A stretch of 64,000 nt of DNA from Candidatus Pacearchaeota archaeon (GTDB lineage: Archaea; Nanobdellota; Nanobdellia; Pacearchaeales; JAPDKA01), in the NCBI GenBank assembly GCA_038817835.1, contig JAWAZI010000003.1:5074-69073 (forward strand). The letters are read 5' to 3'. The position numbers were made by a program, and so were the translations under genes. Below, in pieces: positions 6,801-62,059 of the stretch. Every line of letters begins with the position of its first letter. The stretch's first letter is position 1. Under the pieces are notes generated by a model. It was not told the origin of the DNA, made no database searches, and saw nothing but the letters and a program-made list of their open reading frames with translations.

Positions 6801-6836
6801 TTTAACTTTATTTTTAATTTAAAGTATTAAATATTT

Positions 6837-41652: not shown

Positions 41653-41675
41653 AATAAATATTAATTTTTTTAATT

Positions 41676-41990: not shown

Positions 41991-41991
41991 A

Positions 41992-42566: not shown

Positions 42567-42568
42567 AA

Positions 42569-43108: not shown

Positions 43109-43179
43109 ATTTTTCTTTTTTGAATTAATTAGCTTAATAGATAGAGCAATATTTTTAAATTTATAGAATATTTAAAAAA

Positions 43180-43653: not shown

Positions 43654-43654
43654 A

Positions 43655-44517: not shown

Positions 44518-44518
44518 A

Positions 44519-45283: not shown

Positions 45284-45366
45284 TATTTTTTTATTCTAAC
45301 TTTTTCTTTTTAGCATTTTAGAATAGTAACATAAAATTTATAAAATAAATACATAAAAATCTCAAG

Positions 45367-45840: not shown

Positions 45841-46278
45841 ATATATATTACCAATTTTTTTAGATTTATTTTTTTCATAAGCTAAAGCAACTAAAGCTGC
45901 TTTAAAAGCATCATTTATATGCTTATTTTTAAATTTTTTTATTTTTATTGCAGAAGGAAAAGTTTCTATTACAATTATTTTATTTTTGTTAAAATAATTT
46001 TTTAATTTTAAAGCCCTTTTTGCTAATGCTTGCATAGATTTCAATTTTAAACTTAATGGTTTTAAGCCTTTTTTCCTTAATAATTTTTCTGTTTTTCTAT
46101 CTTTTTTTGATTTTGTTAATGGAGCGTCTATAGCTATTATTTTTACAAACTTTAGAAATTTTTTTATTTCTTTATCTTTTTTTACAAGACCAATAAAAAT
46201 TATTTTTCCATTTTTATTTAAAATACATATACCACTATAATTTTTTTCTTTTGCAGCAAGATCCAAGCCAGCATACAT
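45832..46278 (-). CDS. RNase H-fold nuclease-like protein (DUF429/COG2410-like)
   Basis: Start trimmed to internal Met (MYAGLDLAAKEKNYSGICIL...IDAPL) to avoid overlap with proS. YAGxDLA and IDAPL are typical of RuvC/YqgF-like RNase H fold. Confidence 0.45.
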   Translation of the reverse strand: MYAGLDLAAKEKNYSGICILNKNGKIIFIGLVKKDKEIKKFLKFVKIIAIDAPLTKSKKDRKTEKLLRKKGLKPLSLKLKSMQALAKRALKLKNYFNKNKIIVIETFPSAIKIKKFKNKHINDAFKAALVALAYEKNKSKKIGNIYLL

Positions 46279-46310
46279 AAACTTTAAAAGTTTTTTATTT
46301 TTAAAAATTA

Positions 46311-47744
46311 ATGAATATAGAATCACCAAAATTATTACCAAAAAAACAAGATTTTAGTAAATGGTATAATAGGGTTTTATTTTTAGCAGATATTATTGAT
46401 AAACGATATGATGTTAAAGGTTGTTTTGTTTGGAAAAGTTATGGTTATGAAATAATGTTAAAAATAAAAGAAATTTGGGACAATTTATTTAAAAAAAATG
46501 GAATAAAAGAAATGTATTTTCCTTTACTTGTTCCTTTGAAGTATGCTAAAAAAAATAAAAGTTGGTGGGAAGGATTTAAAGATCAGGCTTATTATGTTAT
46601 TGCTGGAGAAAAAGAAAAATATATTTTAAGGCCTACTGGAGAGCCAGCAATGTATCCTATGTTTTCTTTATGGATAAGAAGTTATAAAGATTTACCATTA
46701 AAAATTTACGAAACAGTATCAAGTTTTAGATATGAAACAAAGCATACAAGGCCTCTTATAAGAGATAGAGAAATTACTGTTTGGCATGAAATTCATTGTG
46801 CTTTTGCAACTAAAGAAGAAGCCGATAAAGAAGTAGAATTACATAGAAAAATTTATGATGATTTATGGAGTGAATTATGCATGGAACCTTTAAGTGTAAT
46901 AAAACCTAGTTGGGAATTATTTCCAGGAGCTGTAGGGGCTATTGAGTATTATAGCTATTTTCCTGAATTAGGAAAAGTTATGGAAAATGGAAGCATAAAT
47001 AATTTAGGACAAGCTTATTCAAAAAAATTTGGGATAAAATTTAAGGATAAAGATGGAAAAGAAAAATATGTTTGGCAAGTTTGTACAGGGAATGGAGCAA
47101 GACTTCTTGTTGCAGTTATAGCTATACATGGAGATGATTTTGGTTTAGTTTTACCACCATCAATTGCTCCAATACAAGTAGTTATAGTGCCAATATCAAA
47201 GAAGGAAAATTGGAATATTGTTTTAGAAAAAGCTAAAGAAATTGATAAGAATTTGAAAAAATATGGCATAAAAAGTTTTGTTGATGATAGACAAGACATT
47301 ACCCCTGGAGAAAAATTTTATGAGCATGAGCTTAAAGGAATACCTATTAGAATAGAAATAGGAGAAAAAGAAATATCTGGAAAATATTTAACAATTTTTA
47401 AGAGAAATACAAGGGAAAAAAAGATAATAAATAATGAAAAAGAAATAAAGAATATCTTATTAGAAATAAAAAAAGAAATGCAAGAAAAAGCGAGAAATAT
47501 AATCAATAATGCAATTATTTTTGAAAAAAATAAAGAAAATATTATGAAGCATATAATTAATAAAAAAATTGTGAAAGTTTATTATTGTGGTGATGGAAAT
47601 TGTTTTGATGCTATAAAGGATTTAGGAAAACAAGAAATTGGAATTGAAGTTTTTGGAACTGATTTAAAAAAATATAAAGAAGGAAATTGTATAATCTGTG
47701 ATAAAAAAACAAATCAAATAGGATACATAGCAAGTACAATTTAA
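46311..47744 (+). CDS. proS: prolyl-tRNA synthetase (archaeal/eukaryotic type)
   Basis: Class II motifs, RPTGEPAMYPMF, C-terminal Zn-binding Cys pairs (CGDGNC...CIICDKK). Confidence 0.85.
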   Translation: MNIESPKLLPKKQDFSKWYNRVLFLADIIDKRYDVKGCFVWKSYGYEIMLKIKEIWDNLFKKNGIKEMYFPLLVPLKYAKKNKSWWEGFKDQAYYVIAGEKEKYILRPTGEPAMYPMFSLWIRSYKDLPLKIYETVSSFRYETKHTRPLIRDREITVWHEIHCAFATKEEADKEVELHRKIYDDLWSELCMEPLSVIKPSWELFPGAVGAIEYYSYFPELGKVMENGSINNLGQAYSKKFGIKFKDKDGKEKYVWQVCTGNGARLLVAVIAIHGDDFGLVLPPSIAPIQVVIVPISKKENWNIVLEKAKEIDKNLKKYGIKSFVDDRQDITPGEKFYEHELKGIPIRIEIGEKEISGKYLTIFKRNTREKKIINNEKEIKNILLEIKKEMQEKARNIINNAIIFEKNKENIMKHIINKKIVKVYYCGDGNCFDAIKDLGKQEIGIEVFGTDLKKYKEGNCIICDKKTNQIGYIASTI

Positions 47745-48077
47745 TTATTCTACATTACTTCCTTGAGCTATTTCTTTTTCAGGGGTAATCAAAACAACTT
47801 TATCATTTTTTTTATCAACAGCAGCAAGAAGCATACCTTCACTTTTTACTCCCCTAATTATTGCAGGTTCAAGATTGGTAATAACTATACAAAGTTTATT
47901 TTTTAATTCTTCAATTTTATAATATTTTTTTAATCCTGCTACTAAATTAATTTGCTTTTCTCCAATATCAACTTTTAATATATATAATTTATCTGCATTT
48001 GGATGGTTTTCAACAGTAATTATTTTTCCTACTTTTATTTTCAATTTTTTCCATTCATCAAAGCTTATGTTACTCAT
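47745..48077 (-). CDS. tRNA-binding domain protein (Trbp111/CsaA/EMAP-like OB fold)
   Basis: VGKIITVENHPNADKLYILKVDIGEK...VAGLKKYY...IIRGVKSEGMLLA. Confidence 0.75.
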   Translation of the reverse strand: MSNISFDEWKKLKIKVGKIITVENHPNADKLYILKVDIGEKQINLVAGLKKYYKIEELKNKLCIVITNLEPAIIRGVKSEGMLLAAVDKKNDKVVLITPEKEIAQGSNVE

Positions 48078-48153
48078 TTTATTCTAAAATTAGAATTATT
48101 TATAAATTTTTTAATAAAATTTATAAAATGCTAAATATAAATTTTTAAAAGAG

Positions 48154-48984
48154 GTGAAAAAAATGAAAAATAAAAAAAATTTTTTTAATTTTTTATTAAT
48201 CCCCTTTAAATTTTTTTTTAAAAATATTTATGTAGCTTTACCATCTTTATTTTTTTTGATATCATCTAGCATTATTTCACTTATATTCTCTTTTTTATTT
48301 TTAGCTTTAGGTTTTTCATTAATTAATCAAGATCTAAATCTTGAAAATTTTAAATTCAGTTCTTTTTTTAGTTTATTACTTTTAATTTTCCTTTATTTTT
48401 TATTTTTGATTATTTTATCATCTTTGTTTTTCTCTAGTACTTTAGTTTTTTCTAGAAATATTGTTAATGGATTAAGAGAAAAAAATTATTTAAAAAACTT
48501 ATTTGCTTATACTAAATATTGGTGGAAAATTTTAGTTTTATCATTAATTTTTATTTTTTTGATTTTTATAATTTCTATTCCTTTTAGTTTAATTATTATA
48601 TTTCTTGCAATAAAATTTTTCTCTACTTTTAATACTATAAATTTAATTTTTTTAATTTTAATTTTAATTTTTAGTTTTATTGTTTTAGTAATTTTTTCAT
48701 TATTTTTTTATCCATCTATTTATTGCTTAGTTTATTATGATTCAGGCTTATTGGATAGCATTAAAATATCTTTTATTAATGTATATAAAAATTTTTTAGA
48801 ATTCTTTAACCTAAATTTAATTTTATTTTTAATTTATTCATTGCTATCAATAGTTTCAGTTTTTTCAAATATTATATTGAGTAGTATTGTTAGTGTTGTT
48901 TTAATCTTATTTTTTATCCCATTTTCTTCATTGACAATAATGTATTTTATAAAAAATAAATTTAAAAGAAAAATAAAAAAATGA
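48154..48984 (+). CDS. polytopic membrane protein (276 aa)
   Basis: About 7 hydrophobic helices; 4-nt overlap with downstream secreted-protein gene. Confidence 0.5.
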   Translation: MKKMKNKKNFFNFLLIPFKFFFKNIYVALPSLFFLISSSIISLIFSFLFLALGFSLINQDLNLENFKFSSFFSLLLLIFLYFLFLIILSSLFFSSTLVFSRNIVNGLREKNYLKNLFAYTKYWWKILVLSLIFIFLIFIISIPFSLIIIFLAIKFFSTFNTINLIFLILILIFSFIVLVIFSLFFYPSIYCLVYYDSGLLDSIKISFINVYKNFLEFFNLNLILFLIYSLLSIVSVFSNIILSSIVSVVLILFFIPFSSLTIMYFIKNKFKRKIKK

Positions 48985-50642
48985 AAAATATTGTTATATT
49001 TATTTTGATATTATTATTTGTTTTAGTTTCTATTCCATTATCTTATTCAGGAACATCTCATGGAGTAGTTGGGAAAGTACTCGATTCTTGTGATGGAACT
49101 AGAGCAAATGGAGCAAAAGTAACTTTTTATATTTTAACTAGACCAGATGATAAATTATATGATGTTGTTGGTCCAAGAGGCAATAGTGGAAAAGATAATT
49201 ATTATTTTGTTGATATTGGAAATTTTATTTATCCATGGCAGTCGGGAGAAACATTAATTATTGAGATTTTTAAAGATGAAGATCATGCTGTAAATATAAG
49301 TATTAATTTAACAGATGCTGGTTTTGATGTAGCTCCGACAGTCAAATTGCCAGGCTATTGCCCAAATCATCCACCAATAATAGTTTCATATTATCCACAA
49401 AATCTTTCTTTGATAACTAATAAACCTATAAATTTTTGGGTTTATGCTATAGATGAAGATGGTGATAATCTAGTTTTGAAATGGTATGTAAATGGTGAGG
49501 AAGTTAAAAGTGAGGAAAATAATGGTAATATAAATTCTAGTTTTTATTTTTCTTATAATATTGGAGAATATACAGTTAAGGCAGTAGTTAGTGATTATGA
49601 ATATAATGCATCTGTTGAATGGCAAGTCAAAATAATTAATAATCCACCAGAAATAATTTATTATTTACCAAATAAAACTTATATAACAACAAATACAACA
49701 ATAGAATTTTTTGTTATAGCTAGAGATATAGATGAAGATGATCTAGTTTTGAAATGGTATGTAAATAATGAAGAAAAAAAACAAAAATTTGGAAAAGGAA
49801 ATATTAATGATACTTTTATATTTACATCTTCTCCAGGATATTATATTATAAAAGCAGAGGTTAGTGATGGAATAGGAAGCGATAGAGTTATATGGAGTGT
49901 TAATTTTAGTGGGGAATGTATAGATTATTGGGAATGTGGAAATTGGAGTGAGTGTGATGAAATGGGATTTAGATATAGAGAATGTTGGAAAATAAATCCA
50001 GAATGTCAAAGTAATATAAATCAACCTCCAATGAAAGTTTTTGATCCAGAATGTTTAAATTTAACATGTACTCCAAATTTTGTTTGTGGAGATTGGAGTG
50101 AATGTATAGCAAAATATAATCTTGAAGAAGTTATAGCTCAAGAGCCACCATATTATGTTAAAGGTAAAATGTATCAGGAATGTAAAGATATAACTAATTG
50201 TACAAATTTATTAAGGATTTTTGAAAAAAATTGTAGTTTATATTTGCCTATAGAAATTAGTAGAACAATACAATGTGAAGTAGCATTTATATTTATTAAA
50301 GATCTAAGAACAAATCAAACTTTAGTAAAAATAAAAAAACCAATAGAATTTACAGGAGTTGATATTTATATTGCTCCAAGGGAAGGAAAGCAATATTGTT
50401 GGTATTGCTTTAACGGAAAAAAAGATTATGATGAAGTTGATGTTGATTGTGGTGGACCAAATTGTCCTCCATGTACTTTAAAACAAATTCCACCAAAGAA
50501 GCATAATTTATTTAAATACTTTATCTTATTATTATTTTTCTTAGTTTTAATATTATATATTATCTCAAAGATTAAAGAAATAAGAGAAAATGTTAATCCA
50601 ATTGAGATATTTAGAAAGATAATAAAAATGGAAGAAAAATAA
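48981..50642 (+). CDS. secreted Cys-rich surface protein with N-terminal prealbumin-like domain, two DxDGD Ig-like repeats, CG[ND]WSEC motifs and C-terminal TM anchor (553 aa)
   Basis: Signal peptide; repeats PPIIVSYYPQN...YAIDEDGDNLVLKWYVNGEE and PPEIIYYLPNK...IARDIDEDDLVLKWYVNNEE; CIDYWECGNWSEC and CTPNFVCGDWSEC; terminal hydrophobic helix. Confidence 0.6.
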   Translation: MKNIVIFILILLFVLVSIPLSYSGTSHGVVGKVLDSCDGTRANGAKVTFYILTRPDDKLYDVVGPRGNSGKDNYYFVDIGNFIYPWQSGETLIIEIFKDEDHAVNISINLTDAGFDVAPTVKLPGYCPNHPPIIVSYYPQNLSLITNKPINFWVYAIDEDGDNLVLKWYVNGEEVKSEENNGNINSSFYFSYNIGEYTVKAVVSDYEYNASVEWQVKIINNPPEIIYYLPNKTYITTNTTIEFFVIARDIDEDDLVLKWYVNNEEKKQKFGKGNINDTFIFTSSPGYYIIKAEVSDGIGSDRVIWSVNFSGECIDYWECGNWSECDEMGFRYRECWKINPECQSNINQPPMKVFDPECLNLTCTPNFVCGDWSECIAKYNLEEVIAQEPPYYVKGKMYQECKDITNCTNLLRIFEKNCSLYLPIEISRTIQCEVAFIFIKDLRTNQTLVKIKKPIEFTGVDIYIAPREGKQYCWYCFNGKKDYDEVDVDCGGPNCPPCTLKQIPPKKHNLFKYFILLLFFLVLILYIISKIKEIRENVNPIEIFRKIIKMEEK

Positions 50643-50675
50643 AAATTTATAAAAATTAAAATTTAAAAATAATAA

Positions 50676-51173
50676 ATGGGGGAGATAGATAAAATATACG
50701 AAACAAAGGTAAAATATGGCGGAATTTTTGATTTTAAAAATATTTATACATTAATTTTTGAGTGGCTTTCGGATATGGGTTATTTTGTTGTAGAAAAAGA
50801 ATATAGTGAAAAGATTAAAGCAGAAGGAAAAGAAATAGAGATTAAGTGGATATGCACTAAAAAAGTTACAGATTATTTTAGATTTATTATTAATGTTAAT
50901 TGGCGTATTGATAATTTACAAGAAATTGAGATAACTAAAGAGAAAAAAATAAGAACAAATAAAGGAAATATAGAGATTAAATTTTCAGCAATTCTAGAAA
51001 GAGATTGGCAAAATAAATATGAGGTTTCTCCATTTCATAAATTTTTGAGAGCTGTTTACGAAAAATATATTATACCAAATAGAATAGAACAAATGGAAGG
51101 AAAAGTTACTGAAGAAGTTTTAGATATTGTGAATAATATTAAAGCATATTTAATTTTAGAAGGAAAAAAATGA
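50676..51173 (+). CDS. hypothetical cytoplasmic protein (165 aa)
   Basis: No TM, no motif. Confidence 0.4.
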   Translation: MGEIDKIYETKVKYGGIFDFKNIYTLIFEWLSDMGYFVVEKEYSEKIKAEGKEIEIKWICTKKVTDYFRFIINVNWRIDNLQEIEITKEKKIRTNKGNIEIKFSAILERDWQNKYEVSPFHKFLRAVYEKYIIPNRIEQMEGKVTEEVLDIVNNIKAYLILEGKK

Positions 51174-51207
51174 ATAAAATTTAAAAATATTCACTTTAAT
51201 AATAAGT

Positions 51208-54200
51208 ATGAAAAAAGGGGTGAAATTTTTAATATTTTTCATTTTGATAGCATTAATTTGGATAATTTTTTTATTATTATTTAAGTCTAGAATTACAGGA
51301 TATAGTATAAATGCTAAAAATTTTTATTTAGTTGGAGAAAATTTAGAAGGATTTTATAATTTAAAATTAAGGCAAGGAGAATTATGGCCATTAGATGCTA
51401 AAGTTATAGTAAGAGCTAATAATATAACTAAAGAATTAAGCTTAAGAGATTGGTTAGAACAAAGCGGAATTGATTATGAAATAATCTATGGAAATTTTTA
51501 TGTTTATGATAAAAATATTTATGGTTATGGTGAAGGTTTTGGAAAAATTGGGAAATATATTGAAAAACCAAATATAAAATTTGAGATAAAAATATATTCT
51601 AAAGAAAAAGAAGAAAAGCCAGTAGAAGAAGAACATCCGGTGGAAATAAAACCAGAGATACCTGTTGAACAGCCAGCTCCAATCGAGCAACCTCAAGAAA
51701 CAATTGAACAACCACAAGAAGAAATACCATCTCAAACAGAGCAACCAACCGAGGTTGAACAACCAGTAGAACAACCACAACTACCTCCAGAAGAAGCAGA
51801 AACTCCAACAGTTCCTGAACAACCAAGTGAACAACCTGAAAAACCAGAAGCAGAAAAAGTTCAGGAGGGAATTTTTAGTAGATTAATAAAATATGGTCCA
51901 TTAAATTTTTTCTATTTCTTTAGAAATTTAGTTGGTTTTGCTATAACTAATGAAATTGAAGGGGAAAAAATAATTCAAGCATATGTTAATATTGATAATC
52001 CATATATTTTAGAGATAAATGAAAATCAATATGCTGAGTTTGTTAGTGGAAGTGTAAAAATAAATGATATTCCTGCTGATGATAACTTCATTAAATTTGA
52101 GAAAAAAGATAATAAAATAATTGTAACTACAGATTATAAAATTGAGAGGGAAGGATTTGGGAAAGAATTTTTAGGAGAAGAATTTTACATTAACCTAAGT
52201 TTAAATATTTTTAATTTAACTTTTGATAAGGAAGGTGTTTATGATTTAGATGTTGAGATAATTTATAATAATATTATTCTTGATAAAGCATCAGCTAAAA
52301 TATTTGTTGAAAAATCAAATCAAACTTATTATATTATTAAATTAATTGATGAAAAGGGAAGAGTAATAAAAGAAATTAATATAAGCAAGAACGAAACTAG
52401 AGAAGGGATTAAATTAAAAATAAAAGAAGAAAAAATTATTTTAGAAAAACCCGAAGAAATTAAGGTTTTAAGCTTAATTCCATTTGTAAAGGCTCAGGTA
52501 ACTCAATTACCTAAAGCTCAATTACCTATATGTGGAAATAATGAATGTGAAAGTGGTGAAGATACTAGCAATTGCCCTAGTGATTGTCCTTTTACTATTT
52601 ATAATTATAGAGGTGGAGATATTTCAGTTCAATTTATTTCTCCATCACAAGAATTAATAAATAAAGGAATATTAACAGAGATAGTTTATTCTACCCCTGC
52701 AGACTTTGATTATGCTTTGATAAAGCTTAACAAAATAGATCCATCTTTAGAAATATCTAAAATTTTAAAATGTGAGAATTGGAATGCTATAACTGCTTCT
52801 TGTGTTGGCAATTTTATCCCTGTTGATATTCCTTTTATTGATTATGGAGATTATATTGTTATAAACATAACAAATTTTTCTGCTTATGCTGGTGGTGCTG
52901 GCTATAATGCATCATTAGTTATTTGGGATAGTAGTGATGCTAGAGCTATAGGCATAAACGAAACAATTTTCTTTTATGCAAATTATTCAACTTATCCTGA
53001 AGGAATACCAATAAATGATAGTAATGGCATTTGTTTAGCATTTTTTAGTTTTGAGAATAGACCAGGATTTTCTGCTGAGATGCAATTTAATTATTCATCT
53101 ATGCTATGGGAAACAAGTTTTTTAACTACAGAAGATATGGTTGGTATTAATAATTTTACAGTTAATTGTTCCTCTAGCAATTATGATAATTTAACAGCAA
53201 GTGATGAATTTATAATTCAAAATATTAGTGTTAATATTATAACTAATTGTACAGAAATAAATCAATCTGGAATTTATAGATTAAATGGTAATTTAACTGC
53301 TACATCATCTTCAAGTTTTGATGGAGCATGTATAAAAATTGCTTCTGATAATGTAATATTTGATTGCAATAATTATGCTATTATTAATGATCTAACAGAT
53401 CCTGTTTCTTATATTATAAAAATATCAAAAAGAACATTAGAAGGAGTAGGAACTGGCTATAATGTTAGTATAAAAAATTGTGAAATTTATAATGCATATT
53501 ATAAAGGAATAGAAATTGATACTTTTAATAATCTAAATTTAGAAAATATAAAAATTCTTAATCAAGAAGAAGGTTGTTGTGGTATAGATATATATGATTC
53601 AAATAATATAAGTATAAATAATTATTATTATGAAGGTAGTGGAGCTTTTGGCTTAACAATTAGTAATTCTTCATATTTAATAGCAAGAAATATTAATATT
53701 ATTAATTATCTTTATGGTTATGAAATAATTGGAGAATGTATTAGTGCTAATATATTAAATAATTCTATTTTTGATGAAGGATTTTTGAATTGTAGTATTA
53801 ATTTAAGGTTGAATGGAGGATCTAATATTAATATTTCTAACTTTTATATTACTCATGGTGATATTAGGGCTGGGGGAGAAAATATTATTATAGAAAATAA
53901 TACATTTGAAGATATATACTCTTTTGAAGCAATTGATTTTTGGGGTAGCGAGAATATTTTCATAAGAAACAATATTTTCAAAAATGTTAAAGGGGAATAT
54001 ATTAAAGTAGATTCCTCCAATAATTTTGAAATTTATAATAATACATTTTATTATAATTCTTCTGAGGGTTTGTTTAATATAATATATTTATCTGCTTCAA
54101 ATAATGGAATCATTAAAGATAATAAATTTATTTATGATGACTTTACAGATTCTTCACAGCCTTTAAATAATTCATCATTTATAGAGATAGGTAATGATAA

Positions 54201-56568
54201 TAGTGAAATAATTAAATTTGAAAATAATTATTTTAAATGGGAAGAAAATGAATTTTATTTTGATGCATTGATTATAAATACTACATCTATTTATGCATAT
54301 AAAGGTTCACCACCATCTTCACCAAATAATTTAATACCATTAAATAAATCATTGATTATATATCAATATTCCCATAATAATAGAATAGATTTAAATATTT
54401 CTTTTGATCCTATTTATAACAATATTAGTTATTATAAAATTGATTTATTAAATGATTCTGGCTGGCTTCAACAATACACAGAAATAATAAATAATAAAGC
54501 ATATACTTATTTTGAAACTCCAGAATTGAATGAAACATATGTTTTTCTTAGTTTATTTGGAGAAGCTCCAGCAGAATGCACTTGTAATTCTTGTGAAGAT
54601 TGCATGAATAAACTTAATAATCCTTCTTGTACAGAAGTAAAACTAGTTAACGATATAATAAATATAGATAGAAATCCATGTATAAATATAAGTTTTTCTA
54701 ATAAAATTTTTGATTGTCAAAATTATAGTATAATAGGAAATGAAACTACTTTAATAGATTATGTTGCAATTTTAATAAATCCAGCAAGCAATGTAACAAT
54801 AAAAAATTGTAATATAGAAAGATTTTATAATGCTATTTTACTAGGAATAGGGTCTCGCTCACCAAAGAATTACAATTTTATTAATATAATTAATAATACT
54901 TTATTGAATAATTCAAGAGCTATAACTTACTCTGAAGAAATTGAAATTTATAATAGCCAAATAGAAAATAATACTTTAATTGATAATATTTTTGGTATTA
55001 AATTCAAAGGTTCTAATAATATAATAAGAAATAATAAAATTAGAGGTAGATATAGGAGTAATGCTACTCACATGGAAACCATTGGAATTATGATTTATCA
55101 ACCAAGTAGAAGTACTTTAATTGATAATAATATAGTATGTAAACATGTATATGATATAAAAGCTGATACCTATGCTAGTGGTATACAAAACTATTGTGAT
55201 GTAGCTATTAACTTTAGTGATTCAAATGCTAGTGGTTGTAAGAAAAAAACAGATATTAATTTTGATATAAAATCTTATTTATTAAAATCTGATAAAATAC
55301 CAATTATAAAATTTGATGTTATTCTTTATTCTAATATTAGTGCAAAAGCAAGATTATATAGTAAATATAATTGGAAAGAAGAATGGAAACCAAATTTTGG
55401 AGCATCATCTTGTATTCGTTTATTGGGAGGATCTATACAAGAATCTAGTGAAGAATTAACCTTACAAGAATCAACTTCTAAAGAATCAATTATTACATCT
55501 AAACTTATACAAGAATCTGTTGGAGAAGAATCAATTTCACTACCACCTCCACAGGAAAAGCCTTCACTTCCACCACCAGAGCCAATTCCACCATCTAAGC
55601 CACCATCTAAACCTCCAATAATATTTACTCTTTGTTCAAGTAGCGGAGAATTAGTATCAGTATCTAGCGGGGATGAGATATTTGCTGAAGGTTATGGAAT
55701 TGTTTCTCCAACAGAGCCATGCATGGAAGGAAGAGAAAGCTATAATATAACTTTCCAAGACGCATTTCCATATAAGGATTGTAGTAATAACACAATAATG
55801 GAATTTGAATATTATAAAATTGAGTTTGAGAACTTTTGTAATAAGAAAGAAAGTGATGTTTATTTAAGAAAAACAAATGAATTAATAAAATCTCCATCAA
55901 AACAAACAGGAATTAACTTTGTTTCATTCACAACAGATATAAGATATGGTGGCATAGCTGTTGCATCTGATGGAAAAATGGCAATTGTTACACCTGAGGA
56001 TATAGATTGTACAATTCAATTACCTATTGAATTAAAAGCCGTATCGCCATGGATAACTCTTTCAAGTTCATCAGAGTTACTAACTTCTTGTATAAGTAGA
56101 AAACTTCAAGAAGAAAACTCATCAGCAAGATTGATATATGCTAGTTATTGGGATGAAGAAAGACAAATGTATGTTGGCCATCCTGCTAGCTTATTTGCAA
56201 ATGCATATATTAAAGATTTCCCAATAAAATTAGGAAAATCTTATTTTGTAGATGTTAATAAAAATTTAACATTCACACAATTTGGAAAACTTCCACCAGA
56301 ATCAATTTGGCATGAAATTAAAGCTGTTGGAGAAAAAATTAATATTATAACTTTAACTCCTCATCAACAAAATATAACAACAGTTAGACAACTTTGTAAT
56401 TTATCGTTTGTAAATCCATATGGATATGTTGAATATTGGGATCCAATAAATCAAAATTTTTTACAAGTTGAATCTCAGCGATGTATGTTTTCAACAAATA
56501 CAGCTTTAGATTTATCTATCCCATATAGAGTTAGTGTAATTAAAAACTATTCTGGGCTTATACCATAA
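51208..56568 (+). CDS. giant glycosylated cell-surface protein (1786 aa), paralog of 7312-11934: signal anchor, Pro/Gln/Glu-rich linker, parallel beta-helix repeats, C-terminal Pro-rich segment
   Basis: N-terminal TM; shared blocks with the 1540-aa protein (FGKEFLGEEFYINLSLNIFNLTFDKEGVYDLDVEIIYNNIIL vs FGEEFLGDIHIFNFPLENFNIKLNNTGVYEFHVKFYYKDIVF; CENWNAITASCVGNF...INITNFSAYAGG vs CKNWSIEEFKCYGEW...FNITNFSGISGG; beta-helix entry NCTEINQSGIYRLNGNLT...CIKIASDNVIFDCNNYAI). Confidence 0.75.
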   Translation: MKKGVKFLIFFILIALIWIIFLLLFKSRITGYSINAKNFYLVGENLEGFYNLKLRQGELWPLDAKVIVRANNITKELSLRDWLEQSGIDYEIIYGNFYVYDKNIYGYGEGFGKIGKYIEKPNIKFEIKIYSKEKEEKPVEEEHPVEIKPEIPVEQPAPIEQPQETIEQPQEEIPSQTEQPTEVEQPVEQPQLPPEEAETPTVPEQPSEQPEKPEAEKVQEGIFSRLIKYGPLNFFYFFRNLVGFAITNEIEGEKIIQAYVNIDNPYILEINENQYAEFVSGSVKINDIPADDNFIKFEKKDNKIIVTTDYKIEREGFGKEFLGEEFYINLSLNIFNLTFDKEGVYDLDVEIIYNNIILDKASAKIFVEKSNQTYYIIKLIDEKGRVIKEINISKNETREGIKLKIKEEKIILEKPEEIKVLSLIPFVKAQVTQLPKAQLPICGNNECESGEDTSNCPSDCPFTIYNYRGGDISVQFISPSQELINKGILTEIVYSTPADFDYALIKLNKIDPSLEISKILKCENWNAITASCVGNFIPVDIPFIDYGDYIVINITNFSAYAGGAGYNASLVIWDSSDARAIGINETIFFYANYSTYPEGIPINDSNGICLAFFSFENRPGFSAEMQFNYSSMLWETSFLTTEDMVGINNFTVNCSSSNYDNLTASDEFIIQNISVNIITNCTEINQSGIYRLNGNLTATSSSSFDGACIKIASDNVIFDCNNYAIINDLTDPVSYIIKISKRTLEGVGTGYNVSIKNCEIYNAYYKGIEIDTFNNLNLENIKILNQEEGCCGIDIYDSNNISINNYYYEGSGAFGLTISNSSYLIARNINIINYLYGYEIIGECISANILNNSIFDEGFLNCSINLRLNGGSNINISNFYITHGDIRAGGENIIIENNTFEDIYSFEAIDFWGSENIFIRNNIFKNVKGEYIKVDSSNNFEIYNNTFYYNSSEGLFNIIYLSASNNGIIKDNKFIYDDFTDSSQPLNNSSFIEIGNDNSEIIKFENNYFKWEENEFYFDALIINTTSIYAYKGSPPSSPNNLIPLNKSLIIYQYSHNNRIDLNISFDPIYNNISYYKIDLLNDSGWLQQYTEIINNKAYTYFETPELNETYVFLSLFGEAPAECTCNSCEDCMNKLNNPSCTEVKLVNDIINIDRNPCINISFSNKIFDCQNYSIIGNETTLIDYVAILINPASNVTIKNCNIERFYNAILLGIGSRSPKNYNFINIINNTLLNNSRAITYSEEIEIYNSQIENNTLIDNIFGIKFKGSNNIIRNNKIRGRYRSNATHMETIGIMIYQPSRSTLIDNNIVCKHVYDIKADTYASGIQNYCDVAINFSDSNASGCKKKTDINFDIKSYLLKSDKIPIIKFDVILYSNISAKARLYSKYNWKEEWKPNFGASSCIRLLGGSIQESSEELTLQESTSKESIITSKLIQESVGEESISLPPPQEKPSLPPPEPIPPSKPPSKPPIIFTLCSSSGELVSVSSGDEIFAEGYGIVSPTEPCMEGRESYNITFQDAFPYKDCSNNTIMEFEYYKIEFENFCNKKESDVYLRKTNELIKSPSKQTGINFVSFTTDIRYGGIAVASDGKMAIVTPEDIDCTIQLPIELKAVSPWITLSSSSELLTSCISRKLQEENSSARLIYASYWDEERQMYVGHPASLFANAYIKDFPIKLGKSYFVDVNKNLTFTQFGKLPPESIWHEIKAVGEKINIITLTPHQQNITTVRQLCNLSFVNPYGYVEYWDPINQNFLQVESQRCMFSTNTALDLSIPYRVSVIKNYSGLIP
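51613..51853 (+). repeat. low-complexity Pro/Gln/Glu-rich (EQP-type) linker-coding region with locally elevated GC
   Basis: Imperfect repeats of gaacaacc(a/t)ca encoding EQPQ/VEQP units. Confidence 0.6.
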
Positions 56569-56598
56569 AATTTAAAAATTAAAAAAGATATATTAAAT

Positions 56599-58095
56599 AT
56601 GGGATTAGAAGATATTACTATAAAGTTAGAAAAAAATAATGAAGAAAAAATTAAAAATAAAAATATAAAAATAAGAGATCCTATACAAAGACAAGAAAGA
56701 GAGGGAATATCAAAAAAAATAAAAAAAATAATAAATTCTCATATATTTTCATCTTTAGGGGAAAAACTTTTTATGTTATTCTCGTTATTTATATTTACAT
56801 ATAAAGGTGTATTAGGTGATACTTGGATTCATCCAAGTCAAGCTCTTAGAAGAGCAATACCATCAACTCCTATACCACAAAAAGTTTTTTTACTTAGAAA
56901 GCCACACGATGCAAATTTATATGGGGATACTATTACACTACCAATATGGGTTTCCCAATACCCTGGTGGAGATACTGATATAACTTGGATAGGAGATTTT
57001 GATTATTTCCAACCATGGCTCAAACGTTCAGATACATTATATGCATGGTTAAAATATAATAATGATACAATCGCATGGTTTAAGTGGTGTGCTGATGCTT
57101 ATTATCGCATAGATTCTATTATTCCATGGGGAGAGTTTTTTCCAGATTTTTGCTTTAATTTGAATAATAATATTAGGCCTCACACAGTAGCAGTGGGTCC
57201 TTATTTTGATACTACTGTTGTAGGAAAGCCAGATTCAATATATTTATATCTTAAAGACAATCCAAATAAAAAACTGGATGCAATAGTAGATTGGACATCA
57301 GAAGTTTTATATGGAGGAATATATCAAAACTATATATTCGATTTTCCAATTCAAGAATTATATGAGCCATATTCCCCTGGAGATAGTTTTATTATTAAAA
57401 TTAAAAAAATAAAAACAAAAGATACAATAATAAATAATGATACAATTCCCTTATATAATATAATTTATTCTACAACTTTAAGAGATGCCATAGATACAAC
57501 ATTAGGTAATGCTCAAGTTTTACTTGCAGATTCATTAAATAATTATGTAATAACTTTTCCACAAGAAACAACCATAACAGATATTTATCCACCATATATT
57601 TATAATTTATATGGCCCAGTTGGTGATACAACATATGCTGAAAAATATAATGTTAATTATAATGCCATAGATTATTCTAACTTAGAAAGCAAGCTAGTAT
57701 ATAAAATTTGGAATGGTTACCCATCAACAGACACAATTAATCCTGATTCTGTAGTTGGAAATAAATATTATTTTACTATTTATGTTCCAAACATTCCAGA
57801 TACAATATATGGAGAATACTATGGCTATTGTAAAGATGTTTTTGGAAATATAGGCTATAGTGATACAAACTCTTTTTATATTCCTCAACTTAGGATTAAA
57901 GAATATAAACATAAATATAATAAAAATAATAAAATAAAACCAAAGAAGATAGTATATTTTGGAAAATTACCAAAAAATTTAAATAAAAATATTAAAAATT
58001 ATGATATTTTTGATTTATCAGGAAGGAAAACTTTCTTTAGAAGAAAGGGAGTTTATATCATTAAACCTAAAGATTATAAAAATTTAAAGAAATAA
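56599..58095 (+). CDS. aromatic-rich (W/Y/P/D) hypothetical protein with one N-proximal hydrophobic segment and Lys-rich C-terminus (498 aa)
   Basis: Unusual composition; directly downstream of the giant surface protein gene (30-nt spacer). Confidence 0.45.
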   Translation: MGLEDITIKLEKNNEEKIKNKNIKIRDPIQRQEREGISKKIKKIINSHIFSSLGEKLFMLFSLFIFTYKGVLGDTWIHPSQALRRAIPSTPIPQKVFLLRKPHDANLYGDTITLPIWVSQYPGGDTDITWIGDFDYFQPWLKRSDTLYAWLKYNNDTIAWFKWCADAYYRIDSIIPWGEFFPDFCFNLNNNIRPHTVAVGPYFDTTVVGKPDSIYLYLKDNPNKKLDAIVDWTSEVLYGGIYQNYIFDFPIQELYEPYSPGDSFIIKIKKIKTKDTIINNDTIPLYNIIYSTTLRDAIDTTLGNAQVLLADSLNNYVITFPQETTITDIYPPYIYNLYGPVGDTTYAEKYNVNYNAIDYSNLESKLVYKIWNGYPSTDTINPDSVVGNKYYFTIYVPNIPDTIYGEYYGYCKDVFGNIGYSDTNSFYIPQLRIKEYKHKYNKNNKIKPKKIVYFGKLPKNLNKNIKNYDIFDLSGRKTFFRRKGVYIIKPKDYKNLKK

Positions 58096-58217
58096 AGCTT
58101 AATAAAGCAAAATTTTTTTTATTTTTTAAAGTATCTTTATAAATTTAAATTTTCTATAATTTTTATAGGATAGAAAAATATTTAAAGTTTAAAAATATAA
58201 AATATTATAACTAAAAA

Positions 58218-59231
58218 GTGGTTAAAATGGAAAAAGAATACAAATTTTATTTGAAAAAAGATTGTAGAGACTATTTTATGAATGGGTTAGAATATATTAT
58301 AAATAAATGTTATGATTTAAAATCTATTTCAAAGGAAAATACATCTAAGCTTTTTTCATTAGATGAAATTGAGGATTTTGAATTTTATATCAAATATAAA
58401 CCATATGATGGTAATGATGAAATAGAAAGAGAAGTTTATAATCATGCAAATTATTCAAATTTTACTTTAATATTTGAATCATGCAATCTTAATAAATATG
58501 AATTAGAAAAAATACTTAAAAATTTGGAAACTAAAGGATATATTTATAAAACTACTTTTCCAGAAGGAAATATTATTTTAGATTATTTAAGCTTGATGGC
58601 TATAACAAAAGATGATAAAAAAATCCAATTTGAGCTAATACCAGGAAAAATAAAATATAAAATAGAAAAAAATAGTCCAATATTTATTGATTCTATTTTA
58701 TTATATTTAGAAAAATTTAATGAATTAATAGAAGATATAAAAATTAAATTAGAGGTTGATGAAATTTTTGGTTATTGTGAAAATAATGGAAGATTTGAGG
58801 AATATTTTTTAGATAATTTGGAAAAAATTTATAAAGAAATAGAGAAAAAATATAAACCAAAAATAGAATTTTATGGAATTGATATTCAGAGATTAGCATT
58901 ATTACAAGAAACCTCTCCAGATTCTAAAGAATTTGAGAGAGAATTTGAAAAATTATTATCTCTTGTTGAAAGTGGTGCATTTTCAGGAAAAATTGTTTTA
59001 GATAGCTCTAAATGGAGCAGCTTAAAAGATAAATATCTTTCTGCAAGAAAAATTTCTGAATCAAATATAGAGTTATATAATAGATTATGTGAAATATATG
59101 ATAAATACAAAAATGACAAAGATAAACTTATTAATTCATACATAAAATTAAAAGAAATTATAAAAAATGAGAAAGAATTAAAATTAATTAAGGAATTTTT
59201 TTCAGAAGTGTTAAATAAAAATTTTAAATGA
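58218..59231 (+). CDS. hypothetical cytoplasmic protein (337 aa)
   Basis: No motif recognised. Confidence 0.4.
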   Translation: MVKMEKEYKFYLKKDCRDYFMNGLEYIINKCYDLKSISKENTSKLFSLDEIEDFEFYIKYKPYDGNDEIEREVYNHANYSNFTLIFESCNLNKYELEKILKNLETKGYIYKTTFPEGNIILDYLSLMAITKDDKKIQFELIPGKIKYKIEKNSPIFIDSILLYLEKFNELIEDIKIKLEVDEIFGYCENNGRFEEYFLDNLEKIYKEIEKKYKPKIEFYGIDIQRLALLQETSPDSKEFEREFEKLLSLVESGAFSGKIVLDSSKWSSLKDKYLSARKISESNIELYNRLCEIYDKYKNDKDKLINSYIKLKEIIKNEKELKLIKEFFSEVLNKNFK

Positions 59232-59248
59232 AAACTTATTAACTTTTA

Positions 59249-59686
59249 ATGTTGAAAAAACATATTTTTTTTGCTATATTATTTTTATTTCTTTTTTTGC
59301 TTGACAGAATAACAAAAATTTTATTTTTAAATAAAAATTTTGAAAAAAATAAAGGAAGTTTTTTTGGGATATTACAGAATTTTCAACTATTAATAATAAT
59401 TTTATCTATATTTATGATATTTTTCCTTATTTATTATTATTTCAAAGAAAAAAATTTTTATTTTAGATTAGGTTTAATATTTATTATTTCAGGAATATTT
59501 TCAAATTTATTTGATAGAATTTTTTATGGCTATGTAATTGATTGGATAAGTTTTTTTAATTTTTCAATTTTTAATATTGCTGATTGTTATTTATGCATTG
59601 GTATAATTTTATGTTTAGTAAGTTTTTTAAATTTAAAAAACATTAATAAAAAAATAAAAATTAAAATATCAAAGCTAAAAAGCTAA
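59249..59686 (+). CDS. lspA: lipoprotein signal peptidase (signal peptidase II) homolog
   Basis: LLDRITK (D-x-x-T/SK), NKGSFFG, GIFSNLFDRIFYGYVIDWISF (GGALGNxxDR...GxVVD) and FNIADCYLCIG (FNxAD) blocks, both catalytic Asp contexts present; 4 TM helices. Confidence 0.65.
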   Translation: MLKKHIFFAILFLFLFLLDRITKILFLNKNFEKNKGSFFGILQNFQLLIIILSIFMIFFLIYYYFKEKNFYFRLGLIFIISGIFSNLFDRIFYGYVIDWISFFNFSIFNIADCYLCIGIILCLVSFLNLKNINKKIKIKISKLKS

Positions 59687-59742
59687 ATATTTCATCATTC
59701 AACTAAAAATAAAATTTTTGGCCTTTTCTTGGCCTTATTAAA

Positions 59743-60861
59743 ATGGGAAAATTAAGTCCAATATCAATAAAATATGTTATAAAAATAAAATTTGAGGCTG
59801 ATGGAACAGTAGAGAAACCAGATGTCATAGGAGCAATATTTGGCCAAACAGAAGGTCTTCTTGGAGAAGATCTTGAGTTAAGGGAATTACAAAAAAAAGG
59901 AAAAATTGGTAGAATAGAAGTTGAAATTCAGCAAGTTAATGATAAAGTAACAGGCATTATAGAAATTCCATCAGCATTAGATAAAACAGAAACAACATTA
60001 ATTGCAGCAGCTATTGAGACTATAGATAGAATAGGACCAACATTAGCAAAATTTAATGTTATAGAAGTTAAAGATGTAAGAGAAGAAAAAAGAAAATACA
60101 TAATAGAAAGAGCAAAAGAATTGCTTAAAAAAATATCAGAGCAAATACCAGAAACAAAAGAAATAGAAGAAGCTGTTAAATTAAAGCTAAAAGTTTCAGA
60201 TATTAAAGAAATAGGTAAAGAAAAATTACCAGCAGGAAATATAGAAGGAAATGAGATTATCGTTGTTGAGGGAAGGGCAGATGTTGTAAATTTGATAAAA
60301 TATGGAGTTGATAATGTTATAGCAATGAATGGAATGAAAGTAACTTCAGGACTTAAAAAAATAATAAAAGATAAAGAAGTAACTCTTTTCATTGATGGGG
60401 ATAGGGGAGGTTTACTTTTAGCAAAAAATTTTTTGAAAAGTAAAGCAAGAGTAGATTATATTGCCAGAGCACCAGATGGAAAAGAAGTAGAAGAATTAAC
60501 AGCAAAAGAAATTTATAATGCATTAAGAAAAAGAAAACCAGTTTTGGAATTTTTTGAAGAGATAAAAAAACCAGAAGAAAATAAAGAGATTTATAAAAAA
60601 ATAAAGCCATTCCTCGATGAAATAAAAAATACAAATAAAGCATATATTGTGGATAGTAACTTTAGATTAAGAAAAATATTTAGTATAACAAATTTAAAAA
60701 AAATTTTGAGGGATGAAGTTGAGAGAGGATATTGTTTAATAATTGATGGAAGTGTTGATGATTATATATTAGATCTCGCAGAGAGCAAGGGATATAAAAT
60801 AGTTGTAGCAAGAAATTTTTTAATAAAAAAATCTCATAAAATAAATTTACTAAGTTTCTAA
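59743..60861 (+). CDS. dnaG: archaeal DnaG-like primase (Toprim; exosome-associated)
   Basis: N-terminal FEADGTVEKPDVIGAIFGQTEGLLGEDLELRELQ (archaeal DnaG signature) and Toprim IVVEGRADVVNL...FIDGDRGG. Confidence 0.8.
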   Translation: MGKLSPISIKYVIKIKFEADGTVEKPDVIGAIFGQTEGLLGEDLELRELQKKGKIGRIEVEIQQVNDKVTGIIEIPSALDKTETTLIAAAIETIDRIGPTLAKFNVIEVKDVREEKRKYIIERAKELLKKISEQIPETKEIEEAVKLKLKVSDIKEIGKEKLPAGNIEGNEIIVVEGRADVVNLIKYGVDNVIAMNGMKVTSGLKKIIKDKEVTLFIDGDRGGLLLAKNFLKSKARVDYIARAPDGKEVEELTAKEIYNALRKRKPVLEFFEEIKKPEENKEIYKKIKPFLDEIKNTNKAYIVDSNFRLRKIFSITNLKKILRDEVERGYCLIIDGSVDDYILDLAESKGYKIVVARNFLIKKSHKINLLSF

Positions 60862-61902
60862 TTTTTCTTTTATTTTTATTATACCTTCTTTATGATTTAT
60901 ATCAAAACTCACAGGCAAAAATTTTTCTATAACCCATGCATTTGTTATTGCATGCTCTGTTATAAAACTTGTTTTTAAAATAGTTTCTTTTTTGAACTTT
61001 GTTGTAATATAAGCTAGGAATGGTAGAATCTGATCTGCAGCATGACTGTCGATTACTCCATTAAATTCATTTTTTAATTTCTCAATAACTTCTTTAGCTA
61101 TAATCTCACTCGATTTTCTTAATTCTCCTAGAGCGCTAACTCCTATTATACTTTTTTCTGCTTCTAGCCATAAACATAAAACAGCTCCATCGCTTTCTGT
61201 ATTTACATATTCTCCATTTAGATTTAATGGGATATTATTAAATATAGGTTCTTTTTTTATTTCTTCTTCTGAAAAATTTATCAATTTTTCAACAACTTTT
61301 TTTTGTTTTAATTTTTCACTTGCTACAGCATTTCCTTTTATACATTTAATTTTTCCTTTTTCATCAAAATTATTGTGTTTTAATTTTACATTTAGAAAAT
61401 TAAAATCAACAATACCTTTTCCTTTAGGGTAAAAGCCCCTTCTTATTATTTCTATTTTTGCCTCATAACCTATTTTTTTTAATAATTCTAGAAATACATA
61501 TTTTGTATAATCTATTGGTGGAGCAAAAGAGACATCAGTGCCTCCTATAATTCTTGCTTTAAATTTTTCTGCTTTAATTAAGCATGGCATTATTGTTTGC
61601 AATACTAGAGATATACTACCTGCTGTACCAATATCAATATTTATATCTTTAAATTCTAAATTTTTAGGTGCAAAATAAATTTCCTTACTTCCAATATAAT
61701 CATTTTTTACATCTGCATTTCCTAAAATTTTTGCAATTTTAATGCAAGCAAGATGTTGTGCTGCTAGTCCAGGATTTGGTCTATTTGCTCTTATATTTTT
61801 TAATATAAATGGCCTTTGTGTTAATAGGCTTAATGCAAGAGAAGTTCTTAATATTTGTCCACCCCCACTTCCATAAGATCCATCAATAATTATTTCATCC
61901 AT
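60850..61902 (-). CDS. rtcA: RNA 3'-terminal phosphate cyclase
   Basis: MDEIIIDGSYGSGGGQILRTSLALSLLTQRPF N-terminal signature; 350 aa. Confidence 0.8.
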   Translation of the reverse strand: MDEIIIDGSYGSGGGQILRTSLALSLLTQRPFILKNIRANRPNPGLAAQHLACIKIAKILGNADVKNDYIGSKEIYFAPKNLEFKDINIDIGTAGSISLVLQTIMPCLIKAEKFKARIIGGTDVSFAPPIDYTKYVFLELLKKIGYEAKIEIIRRGFYPKGKGIVDFNFLNVKLKHNNFDEKGKIKCIKGNAVASEKLKQKKVVEKLINFSEEEIKKEPIFNNIPLNLNGEYVNTESDGAVLCLWLEAEKSIIGVSALGELRKSSEIIAKEVIEKLKNEFNGVIDSHAADQILPFLAYITTKFKKETILKTSFITEHAITNAWVIEKFLPVSFDINHKEGIIKIKEKLET

Positions 61903-61932
61903 AAAAAATTATTTTTAATTTTATTTAAAAAA

Positions 61933-61940
61933 TTTATAAA
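61933..61940 (+). promoter_or_regulatory. candidate archaeal TATA box (TTTATAAA) about 27 nt upstream of initiator tRNA
   Basis: TTTATAAA centred about -27 from the tRNA 5' end. Confidence 0.35.
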
Positions 61941-61963
61941 GAAGAATTTTTTAAATTTTATAT

Positions 61964-62038
61964 AGCGGGGTAGAGCAGCCAGGAGTGCTCGCCGGGCTCA
62001 TAACCCGGAGGTCGGTGGTTCAAATCCACCCCCCGCTA
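61964..62038 (+). tRNA. initiator tRNA-Met (anticodon CAU), archaeal type with A1:U72
   Basis: agcgggg...ccccgct acceptor with A1:U72, three consecutive G:C pairs in anticodon stem (ccggg/cccgg), loop ctcataa. Confidence 0.85.
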
Positions 62039-62059
62039 TTTAAATTTAATTTTTAATTT

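Follow-up and report, generated by a model that had tools for sequence, protein, structure and literature searches.

We analyzed a 64-kb stretch of DNA (the window) from one metagenome-assembled genome (MAG) of Candidatus Pacearchaeota, a DPANN archaeon, with particular attention to positions 48154-59686, where a string of plus-strand genes surrounds the gene of a giant protein of 1786 aa. This region is probably a cell-surface gene island: the giant would be an anchored modular surface protein, the lipoprotein signal peptidase (LspA) gene that closes the string would stand apart from it, and a second giant of 1540 aa encoded elsewhere in the window would not be its switchable twin. A previous reading of the letters alone (the sequence-only reading) had described the region as a second surface module ending in LspA, and had suggested inversion or domain shuffling between the two giants. 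All the open reading frames (ORFs) named in that reading were found again at their places. The window is archaeal: it encodes an RNase P RNA of archaeal type (164 bits) and a DnaG that matches the archaeal equivalog NF003108 (386 bits). Its guanine-plus-cytosine (GC) content is about 24%, and the 1786-aa protein corresponds to NCBI QXM27_01660 of Candidatus Pacearchaeota archaeon, encoded on a contig of 72,179 bp, with 100% identity. Comparisons between strains were made with a sister strain, GCA_038855895.1, which has 98.4% nucleotide identity to the window. The genes concerned are the following.

48154-48984, plus strand: 276-aa polytopic membrane protein, about 8 hydrophobic segments by hydropathy, conserved in the sister strain
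48981-50642, plus strand: 553-aa type-I surface protein with a cleavable-looking signal peptide, two PKD/Ig repeats, Cys-rich modules and a C-terminal transmembrane (TM) anchor
50676-51173, plus strand: 165-aa protein, first gene of the putative lineage-specific island, also in the sister strain
51208-56568, plus strand: 1786-aa giant surface protein, with an N-terminal signal-anchor helix as predicted membrane anchor
56599-58095, plus strand: 498-aa Tyr/Trp-rich protein, basic at its N-terminus and in its C-terminal tail, with one short hydrophobic segment at aa 58-72, inside the strain-variable block
58218-59231, plus strand: 337-aa protein, 5'-truncated copy of a winged-helix (HTH_45) protein
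59249-59686, plus strand: 145-aa LspA (signal peptidase II, Peptidase_A8) homolog, 4 TM segments
59743-60861, plus strand: DnaG, first gene of a conserved housekeeping block
60850-61902, minus strand: RtcA, same block
61963-62039, plus strand: tRNA-Met, same block
62060-62773, plus strand: RNase HII, same block

The extent of the island was deduced from a distant Pacearchaeote (contig L003), whose LspA is 44% identical to that of the window. In this organism the genes follow each other in the order PKD-protein homolog, 116-aa gene, LspA, DnaG, RtcA, tRNA-Met and RNase HII, with no giant between. The PKD homolog (42% identity to the 553-aa protein, E 1e-27) and the 116-aa gene lie within 342 nt of LspA, where the window has an interval of 8.6 kb with the 165-aa, giant, 498-aa and 337-aa genes. 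An ortholog of the giant, P0003 (37% identical), has unrelated neighbours; the 165-aa gene is not upstream of this 37%-identical ortholog in L002, and it is not in L003. From this synteny without a giant and from the unrelated neighbours of P0003, the giant block would be a lineage-specific island and LspA a part of the housekeeping block. Since the four genes lie between the conserved PKD gene and the conserved LspA-DnaG-RtcA-tRNA-Met-RNase HII genes, they would represent a lineage-specific insertion, the direction of which we infer, or would have been lost elsewhere.

That the locus encodes surface proteins was rightly seen in the sequence-only reading. Neither the 165-aa nor the 337-aa protein has a predicted TM segment or signal peptide. 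Relaxed thresholds included, no credible match in Pfam or NCBIfam was found for the 276-, 165-, 498- and 337-aa proteins.

The giant proteins and their proposed anchor module

The architecture of the 1786-aa giant and the position of its paralog are given below.

51208-52332, plus strand: N-terminal module (N-module), aa 1-375, consisting of a TM helix, a sandwich, a spacer and a second sandwich
52525-53067, plus strand: module C, aa 440-620, a Cys-rich mini-module and a "CENWN...NITNFS" region, common to the 1540-aa paralog and a subset of the family
53239-55245, plus strand: two right-handed parallel beta-helix passengers, about aa 678-1100 and 1157-1346, with a CxCxSCxxC...KLN cap motif between
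55630-56565, plus strand: C-terminal (distal, tip) domain, aa 1475-1786, which follows a Pro-rich spacer (aa 1436-1475)
7312-11934, minus strand: 1540-aa paralog, in which DUF2341/LamG-like and beta-helix regions come after the N-module and module C, and the C-terminal domain is a different one

A single colinear BLASTP high-scoring segment pair (HSP) aligns residues 3-542 of the 1540-aa protein with residues 1-613 of the 1786-aa protein (24.6% identity, E 3e-26) and spans the CxNW...NITNFS block. The beta-helix entry motif also matches between the giants (residues 678-758 against 803-869, E 1e-6 to 6e-6). The observation that the two proteins are paralogous, colinear over about 600 N-terminal residues and different in their downstream domains is therefore correct. 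Equally accurate were the inverted orientation of the two genes, which lie 39,274 nt apart with housekeeping genes (aminoacyl-tRNA synthetase, ribosomal-protein and RNA-polymerase genes) between them, and the Pro/Gln-rich linker, which occupies residues 135-225 and contains 26 E, 19 P and 13 Q out of 91. The duplication concerns the giants only: all-versus-all BLASTP of the 74 window ORFs gave no other paralogous pair, so that the picture of two paralogous "modules" has to be abandoned. The two giants are true but ancient paralogs: about 80 family members from other organisms outscore the 1540-aa protein (rank about 81st) against the N-module of the 1786-aa protein.

This N-module is the defining element of a large family. 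A profile was built from seven N-modules (alignment A1) and compared exhaustively with 1.84 billion representative proteins, with clusters defined at 50% identity. It detected 1014, 842 and 575 clusters at E<=1e-3, 1e-10 and 1e-30, respectively. An exhaustive profile search was needed: a word-indexed search with the same profile returned 5 matches only, with low-complexity linker words dominating. Family proteins re-examined numbered 158, with lengths of 317-4458 aa, and in every one of them the module begins within ~110 residues of the N-terminus. The five top members bearing an organism name are all Pacearchaeota "right-handed parallel beta-helix repeat-containing proteins". The N-module itself has no match in Pfam or NCBIfam in the window giants, nor in Pfam in 24 members, and we found no description of a common N-terminal module in the literature searched. 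This anchor module of at least 1000 giant-protein clusters, whose named members are Pacearchaeota, is a smaller novelty of the region.

AlphaFold2 modelling of the N-module (23-sequence alignment) gave a mean predicted local distance difference test (pLDDT) score of 78, and more than 90 in the folded parts. The model predicts a TM helix (3-26), an Ig-like beta-sandwich (33-131), a disordered Glu/Pro/Gln spacer (135-234) and a second beta-sandwich (245-368), and its folds match Ig-like, PKD, CARDB and CBM structures. Both window giants align over the whole module, which contains the motifs GELxPxDS, GxGxGYGxxG and (V/I)TTDY...GFGxxF(L); residues G48, P61, G108, G110, G112, F125, G316 and G318 are invariant in alignment A3. 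In most members the TM helix is preceded by a cytoplasmic leader of about 40 aa, MVxKKYIxKxGKxYGPYxYExxRxxGKVxTxYLG (consensus of alignment A2, 24 members). The two window giants have no such leader and start directly at the TM helix; they belong to a leaderless minority, about 29 of the 158 members, in which the module starts at residues 1-21. We propose that the module would act as an uncleaved signal-anchor helix followed by a stalk, on which interchangeable passengers would be carried.

The passengers vary from one family member to another. Homologs P0003-P0007 align with the 1786-aa protein only over its first ~370 residues and continue with LamG-like, PQQ-propeller, subtilase or RCC1 passengers. 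Pfam passengers in 24 members were Laminin_G_3 (13), Big_13 (5), Beta_helix (4), NosD (3) and DUF2341 (1), and one family member has a subtilase S8 domain. C-terminal domains are shared among members in a mosaic way. Domain shuffling, one of the mechanisms suggested earlier, is thus real as a property of the family over evolutionary time scales and does not operate between the resident giants. An IS200-type Y1 transposase gene was seen 1.3 kb upstream of the P0007 giant (L024, 3977-4411) and none in the window, which hints that some family members adjoin mobile elements. The module offers a handle for cataloguing the surface proteome of Pacearchaeota, with 1014 clusters bearing lectin-like, beta-helix, protease and propeller passengers, and helps to locate the strain-variable parts which probably mediate host contact in these uncultivated symbionts.

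In the 1786-aa giant the passengers would be two right-handed beta-helices and a rare C-terminal tip, and in the 1540-aa giant a DUF2341/LamG-like region, a beta-helix and a different tip. Pfam Beta_helix (PF13229) matches the 1786-aa protein in 3 stretches (E 6e-10, 39.3 bits for a cutoff of 25.9), and NosD (PF05048) matches residues 1157-1346 under its own cutoff (E 5e-4, 20 bits). The first beta-helix is predicted from its repeat pattern and from homology to P0003. Internal self-matches are present in the beta-helix passengers. Module C was found by jackhmmer in 9 of the 264 proteins examined. Among the same 264 proteins the C-terminal domain of the 1786-aa giant matches only P0003 (35.6% identity, E 8e-40), and that of the 1540-aa giant, common in the family, matches P0007 (E 5e-28) and 25 of these proteins. 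The tip of the 1786-aa giant has no Pfam match, its AlphaFold2 model from a 2-sequence alignment is unusable (pLDDT 33), and a PDB sequence search with the whole giant gave no match. Look-ups of the exact protein, for this giant and for P0125, returned no record.

The 1786-aa giant has 55 N-X-S/T sequons and 36 Cys, the 1540-aa giant 60 sequons and 20 Cys. Together with a VKOR protein encoded in the window, these features would fit glycosylated, disulfide-bonded extracellular proteins. The VKOR gene lies at 17955-18383 (minus strand, E 3.5e-20), and a membrane protein at 24741-25877 (minus strand) has weak, sub-cutoff TraF/thioredoxin-like and DsbD_TM matches. The two suggest an extracytoplasmic disulfide-forming machinery, fitting the Cys-rich surface proteins of both modules.

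Several observations concern the surroundings of the 1540-aa giant. Three genes downstream of it (4948-7325, minus strand; 162, 392 and 149 aa) have the same order and size as those downstream of P0007 (166, 417 and 154 aa; L024, 12048-14260). The 392-aa protein (5369-6547) and the 417-aa neighbour of P0007 are homologous (E 9e-15), and P0007 has the same C-terminal domain as the 1540-aa giant. Unlike the second, the first module may be a conserved cluster of a giant and its partners. At 11985-15675 (plus strand) a fusion of PIN, T2SSE-type ATPase and KH domains precedes four small proteins, each having one hydrophobic segment at the N-terminus, and two similar small proteins are encoded at 39002-40026 (plus strand). 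By eye these look like pilin-type (class III) signal peptides. A pilus-like assembly cluster may therefore adjoin the 1540-aa giant.

Strain variation and the inversion model

Housekeeping genes of the window differ from those of the sister strain by 0-6 codons each. Along the giant gene the divergence climbs: residues 701-1151, in the first beta-helix, contain 22 synonymous and 44 nonsynonymous changes in 451 codons (15%). It is followed by a region of lost homology.

54663-58231, plus strand: strain-variable block, covering beta-helix 2, the C-terminal domain and the 498-aa gene (blastn, L001 and L021)

The homology to the sister strain ends at 54663 (residue ~1152), at the CxCxSCxxC cap before beta-helix 2, and resumes at 58231, so the distal half of the giant and the 498-aa gene appear to behave as a replaceable cassette between strains. 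The right boundary of the block truncates the 337-aa gene in the window. In the sister strain the corresponding ORF is longer upstream and starts with an HTH_45 domain (E 1.8e-7), its homology to the window beginning at 58231; the 337-aa protein is thus predicted not to be a surface component. A third sample (L020) has the window haplotype over 55700-62019. The variability attributed to the giant gene is in this sense genuine. The last 50 residues of the sister allele are identical to P0003 at 32/52 positions, to the window giant at 23/51 and to the 1540-aa paralog at 16/45. Gene conversion from the 1540-aa paralog was considered as a source of the sister allele and ruled out (16/45 versus 32/52 for P0003). 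Domain shuffling at this locus uses alleles from elsewhere in the population, not the resident paralog. The source of diversity would be the exchange of passenger cassettes, together with faster divergence among strains and among family members, and not inversion between resident copies.

The inversion model supposes that homologous or site-specific recombination between the two giant genes, which lie in inverted orientation, flips the 39-kb segment between them and thereby swaps passengers for phase or antigenic variation. The inverted orientation, the common N-terminal region of ~600 aa and the different downstream domains on which it is built are real, and the giant gene is a strain-variable hotspot. 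The two genes nevertheless share no usable DNA identity. The best blastn HSP between them (word sizes 7 and 16) is 69 nt at 75%, and their longest common exact word is 16 nt, for 14-19 nt in 20 codon-shuffled controls. A dot-plot-type comparison, as had been recommended, gives colinear blocks for the proteins and nothing above chance for the DNA. The only inverted repeat joining the giant genes is 50 nt at 72%, at the GFGxEFLG motif; besides it, inverted and direct repeat scans of the whole window detected only AT-rich low complexity and the PKD duplication.

The machinery and the products of an inversion were looked for as well. Among the window ORFs scanned, none showed a domain of a recombinase, invertase, integrase, transposase or reverse transcriptase; the rest are housekeeping genes by sister-contig gene calls or by eye. 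The repeat scans gave no direct repeat of the variable region, so that the reverse transcriptase and the template repeat which define a diversity-generating retroelement are both absent from the material scanned. Wherever assemblies of near-identical strains align with the window, they are colinear with it (L001 over 41204-54663, L020 over 55700-62019, L021-L023 further downstream), and the phase or antigenic variation proposed in the sequence-only reading finds no alternative arrangement in them. Furthermore the paralogs are ancient, the sister-strain allele is not derived from the paralog, and some 39 kb of housekeeping genes would have to flip too. We consider the inversion model hardly credible, and at the sequence level essentially refuted. 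More generally, inverted paralogous surface genes in AT-rich MAGs should not be taken for invertible switches unless identity exists at the DNA level.

LspA and the housekeeping block

The last gene of the string was correctly recognized as an LspA homolog. It matches PF01252 with 83.1 bits for a cutoff of 25 (E 3e-23), over profile positions 15-141 of 142. The catalytic Asp pair is kept (NLFDR and FNIAD, compared to NFIDR and FNIAD in the S. aureus LspA, 6RYO), as is the NxG motif, and D89 and D112 are invariant in alignment A4, which includes archaeal and bacterial homologs. The protein scores under the TIGR00077 equivalog cutoff (53.1 versus 73.95 bits), and its TM1-TM2 loop is shorter than in most homologs. 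NCBI annotates it as MEM1577702.1, and the pipeline names archaeal homologs "signal peptidase II". Short-looped relatives of the window LspA adjoin Lgt and many lipoprotein genes in contig L006: LspA (1819-2250, 40% identical to that of the window), Lgt (2295-3062) and at least 5 proteins with LIGASC/LIGGSC lipoboxes are found there within 12 kb. The contig has a GC content of 36%; if the organism (L006 and L007) is archaeal, the Lgt found there would be an archaeal Lgt as well.

The association of LspA with its downstream neighbours is conserved. The same gene set follows it in L020-L023, and assignments were confirmed by RNase_HII (E 2e-41) in the window and, for the corresponding genes in L003 and L020-L023, by RTC domains in Pfam. 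A chimeric assembly was considered as the source of LspA and ruled out: the junction with DnaG recurs in L003 and in another five contigs (L020-L023 and L004), which come from separate samples. Two details were noted in passing. In the window, RtcA (60850-61902, minus strand) runs opposite to DnaG and RNase HII, unlike in L003 (3138-4205, plus strand); this represents a small local inversion where the synteny is otherwise conserved. The gene directly upstream of LspA in the Pacearchaeote L003 (763-1113, 116 aa) and in the Woesearchaeote L005 (9571-9969, 132 aa) encodes a low-complexity protein with a C-terminal coiled-coil-like segment, and no such gene is present in the window.

It could be supposed that the string 48154-59686 functions as a single operon and that its LspA matures those components of the surface module that are lipoproteins. 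All genes are on the same strand with gaps of 17-122 nt, LspA is intact, and a PKD-protein homolog is found near LspA in L003 too. The substrates are nevertheless missing. Strict and relaxed lipobox scans of the 74 window ORFs gave two matches only, both rejected as their Cys lies inside TM helices, and no protein of either module has a lipobox or a Cys after its N-terminal hydrophobic segment, to be compared with the lipoproteins of L006. Directly before LspA lies a truncated winged-helix gene, for whose product no TM segment is predicted. The synteny of LspA with DnaG, RtcA and RNase HII persists without a giant in L003, and in a Woesearchaeote LspA has quite different neighbours. A single operon of this kind is very unlikely, and LspA, which had been counted as part of the surface module, appears to belong to the housekeeping block. 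The Lgt of L006 was also compared by phmmer and tblastn with the window ORFs and the six-frame translation, and nothing significant was obtained, the 276-aa protein included.

The presence of LspA in this lineage has a wider bearing. According to a 2018 review, signal peptidase II and Lgt had no identified homologs in archaea (PMC6098224), and a 2025 Nature Communications paper states the same for Lsp and Lgt (PMC12462473). Our searches found LspA on contigs with archaeal markers in at least 2 divergent Pacearchaeota lineages, from several separate assemblies, and in a Woesearchaeote, on contigs of about 420 kb with eIF-1A, LSM and diphthamide synthase genes. Scanning genomes with LspA yielded 11 bacterial loci and a single archaeal one (Woesearchaeota). 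Literature searches combining LspA or lipoprotein signal peptidase with DPANN, Pacearchaeota or Woesearchaeota returned no paper. By sequence, the archaeal LspA contradicts the published statements, because clear homologs share their contigs with eIF-1A and with DnaG and RNase P RNA of archaeal type. We tentatively suggest, as a possibility short of a firm proposal, that Pacearchaeota and Woesearchaeota have a vertically maintained, catalytically intact LspA of bacterial type, usually beside core archaeal genes, which would supply signal-peptide cleavage in archaeal lipoprotein biogenesis. For at least part of the Archaea, LspA would be a testable candidate for the cleavage enzyme that has been missing, next to the lipidation factors AliA/AliB, which were found recently.

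The remaining proteins of the region were characterized as follows. In the 553-aa protein, Pfam detects PKD (E 8e-10) and a weak second Ig match (Big_9); TM segments were placed at residues 1 and 507, and 14 N-X-S/T sequons and 20 Cys were counted. The PKD duplication is visible in the DNA as a direct repeat (D1, 138 nt at 73%). The CG[ND]WSEC motifs likened to TSP1 are literally there and conserved in the L003 homolog, within a CxDxWxCxxWSEC...RYRxC pattern, but residues 301-553 have no Pfam TSP_1 match, even at E<=5. This pattern would be a small disulfide-rich module outside TSP_1. A metagenome scan with the 553-aa protein yielded just two weak PKD-repeat loci, and a PDB sequence search no match. 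The 498-aa protein is indeed aromatic-rich, with 15.9% F+W+Y for a window mean of 11.7%. Its C-terminus, NYDIFDLSGRKTFFRRKGVYIIKPKD, looks by eye like a C-terminal beta-sandwich tail of Por/T9SS type, without support from Pfam; a weak Por_Secre_tail match was seen on a Woesearchaeota neighbour of LspA. Elsewhere in the window, a stand-alone 199-aa GGDEF diguanylate cyclase domain (35746-36345, minus strand; PF00990, E 1.3e-46) overlaps the stop of a gene which by eye is Bud32-like. Cyclic di-GMP signalling is regarded as essentially bacterial.

Function of the giants and comparison with known systems

The most likely function of the 1786-aa giant would be that of a glycosylated, disulfide-bonded adhesin or glycan-binding fibre, with which a small archaeon that depends obligately on a host would make contact with surfaces of the host or of a substrate. 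Two other functions were weighed. The giants might be surface-anchored beta-helix enzymes, polysaccharide lyases or glycosidases digesting host cell-wall or environmental glycans for a nutrient-dependent symbiont. Beta_helix and NosD (CASH-type) domains are present, and the subtilase S8 domain of one family member indicates that enzymatic passengers exist; yet neither Pfam, NCBIfam nor PDB sequences gave a match to catalytic lyase or hydrolase families, no catalytic residues are identifiable, and the commonest passenger of the family is the lectin-like Laminin_G_3. We hold this enzymatic role to be unlikely. A structural coat, an S-layer-like sheath rather than specific adhesins, would be compatible with the membrane anchor, the stalk architecture and the many sequons. 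It agrees poorly with the coexistence of at least 2 very different paralogs in 64 kb and with the enormous variation of passengers and lengths in the family; replacement of the distal half between strains is atypical of a lattice-forming protein, and no similarity to known S-layer families was found in Pfam and NCBIfam. Such a coat seems to us more unlikely still.

Several points weigh against the surface island with an adhesive giant as we propose it. The adhesive role is a prediction, the giant having no PDB sequence match and its tip a model of pLDDT 33 only, and some beta-helices are not binders but enzymes such as lyases or glycosidases. The island is drawn from a single distant comparator, L003; its contig breaks off within the PKD gene, and a deletion in the L003 lineage is as possible as an insertion. 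Several contigs break in the variable region, the variability of which could partly be an artefact of MAG assembly or consensus. The substrates of LspA and a lipid transferase may lie elsewhere in the genome, beyond the 64-kb window. Finally, the Pfam scan took in part of the window ORFs, obvious housekeeping genes being recognized by eye or through sister-contig gene calls.

A surface island with an anchored modular giant can be compared with several known systems. Invertible surface-antigen systems include shufflons and the site-specific inversion loci of Mycoplasma or Bacteroides. The window resembles them only in having two homologous surface-protein genes in inverted orientation, and differs from them by lacking usable inverted repeats, a recombinase in the ORFs scanned and an alternative arrangement in the overlapping assemblies. 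With the bacterial LspA (Peptidase A8; PDB 6RYO, 5DIR and 9EMZ), the window protein shares the four TM segments, the NxG, DR and FNxAD motifs and both catalytic Asp. It differs by its archaeal host, its shorter TM1-TM2 (beta-cradle) loop, its score below the TIGR00077 cutoff and the absence of Lgt and lipobox substrates in 64 kb.

Methanobrevibacter adhesin-like proteins and the SPEARE-type giants of Nanohaloarchaea are archaeal proteins of host or surface interaction. The window giants are like them large, modular, secreted or anchored, with Ig-like, beta-helix or lectin-like modules, divergent paralogs and a presumed role in attachment. This is a resemblance only: no sequence relationship was detected, and the window giants are anchored by an N-terminal signal-anchor helix and have no protease or nuclease domains. 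The giants belong to the already known but uncharacterised giant modular surface proteins of DPANN archaea, and by profile search both fall within the Pacearchaeota giant-protein set. Huge archaeal surface proteins with Laminin_G_3 or beta-helix (CASH) domains have been surveyed, and their function was called "not understood" (PMC11573180). What the window pair adds to that set is the common N-module, unmatched in Pfam and NCBIfam, and the rare C-terminal domain of the 1786-aa protein, shared with P0003 only among 264 proteins. In organism group, giant size, beta-helix and LamG passengers and predicted surface location, the two giants are alike to the proteins of that set.

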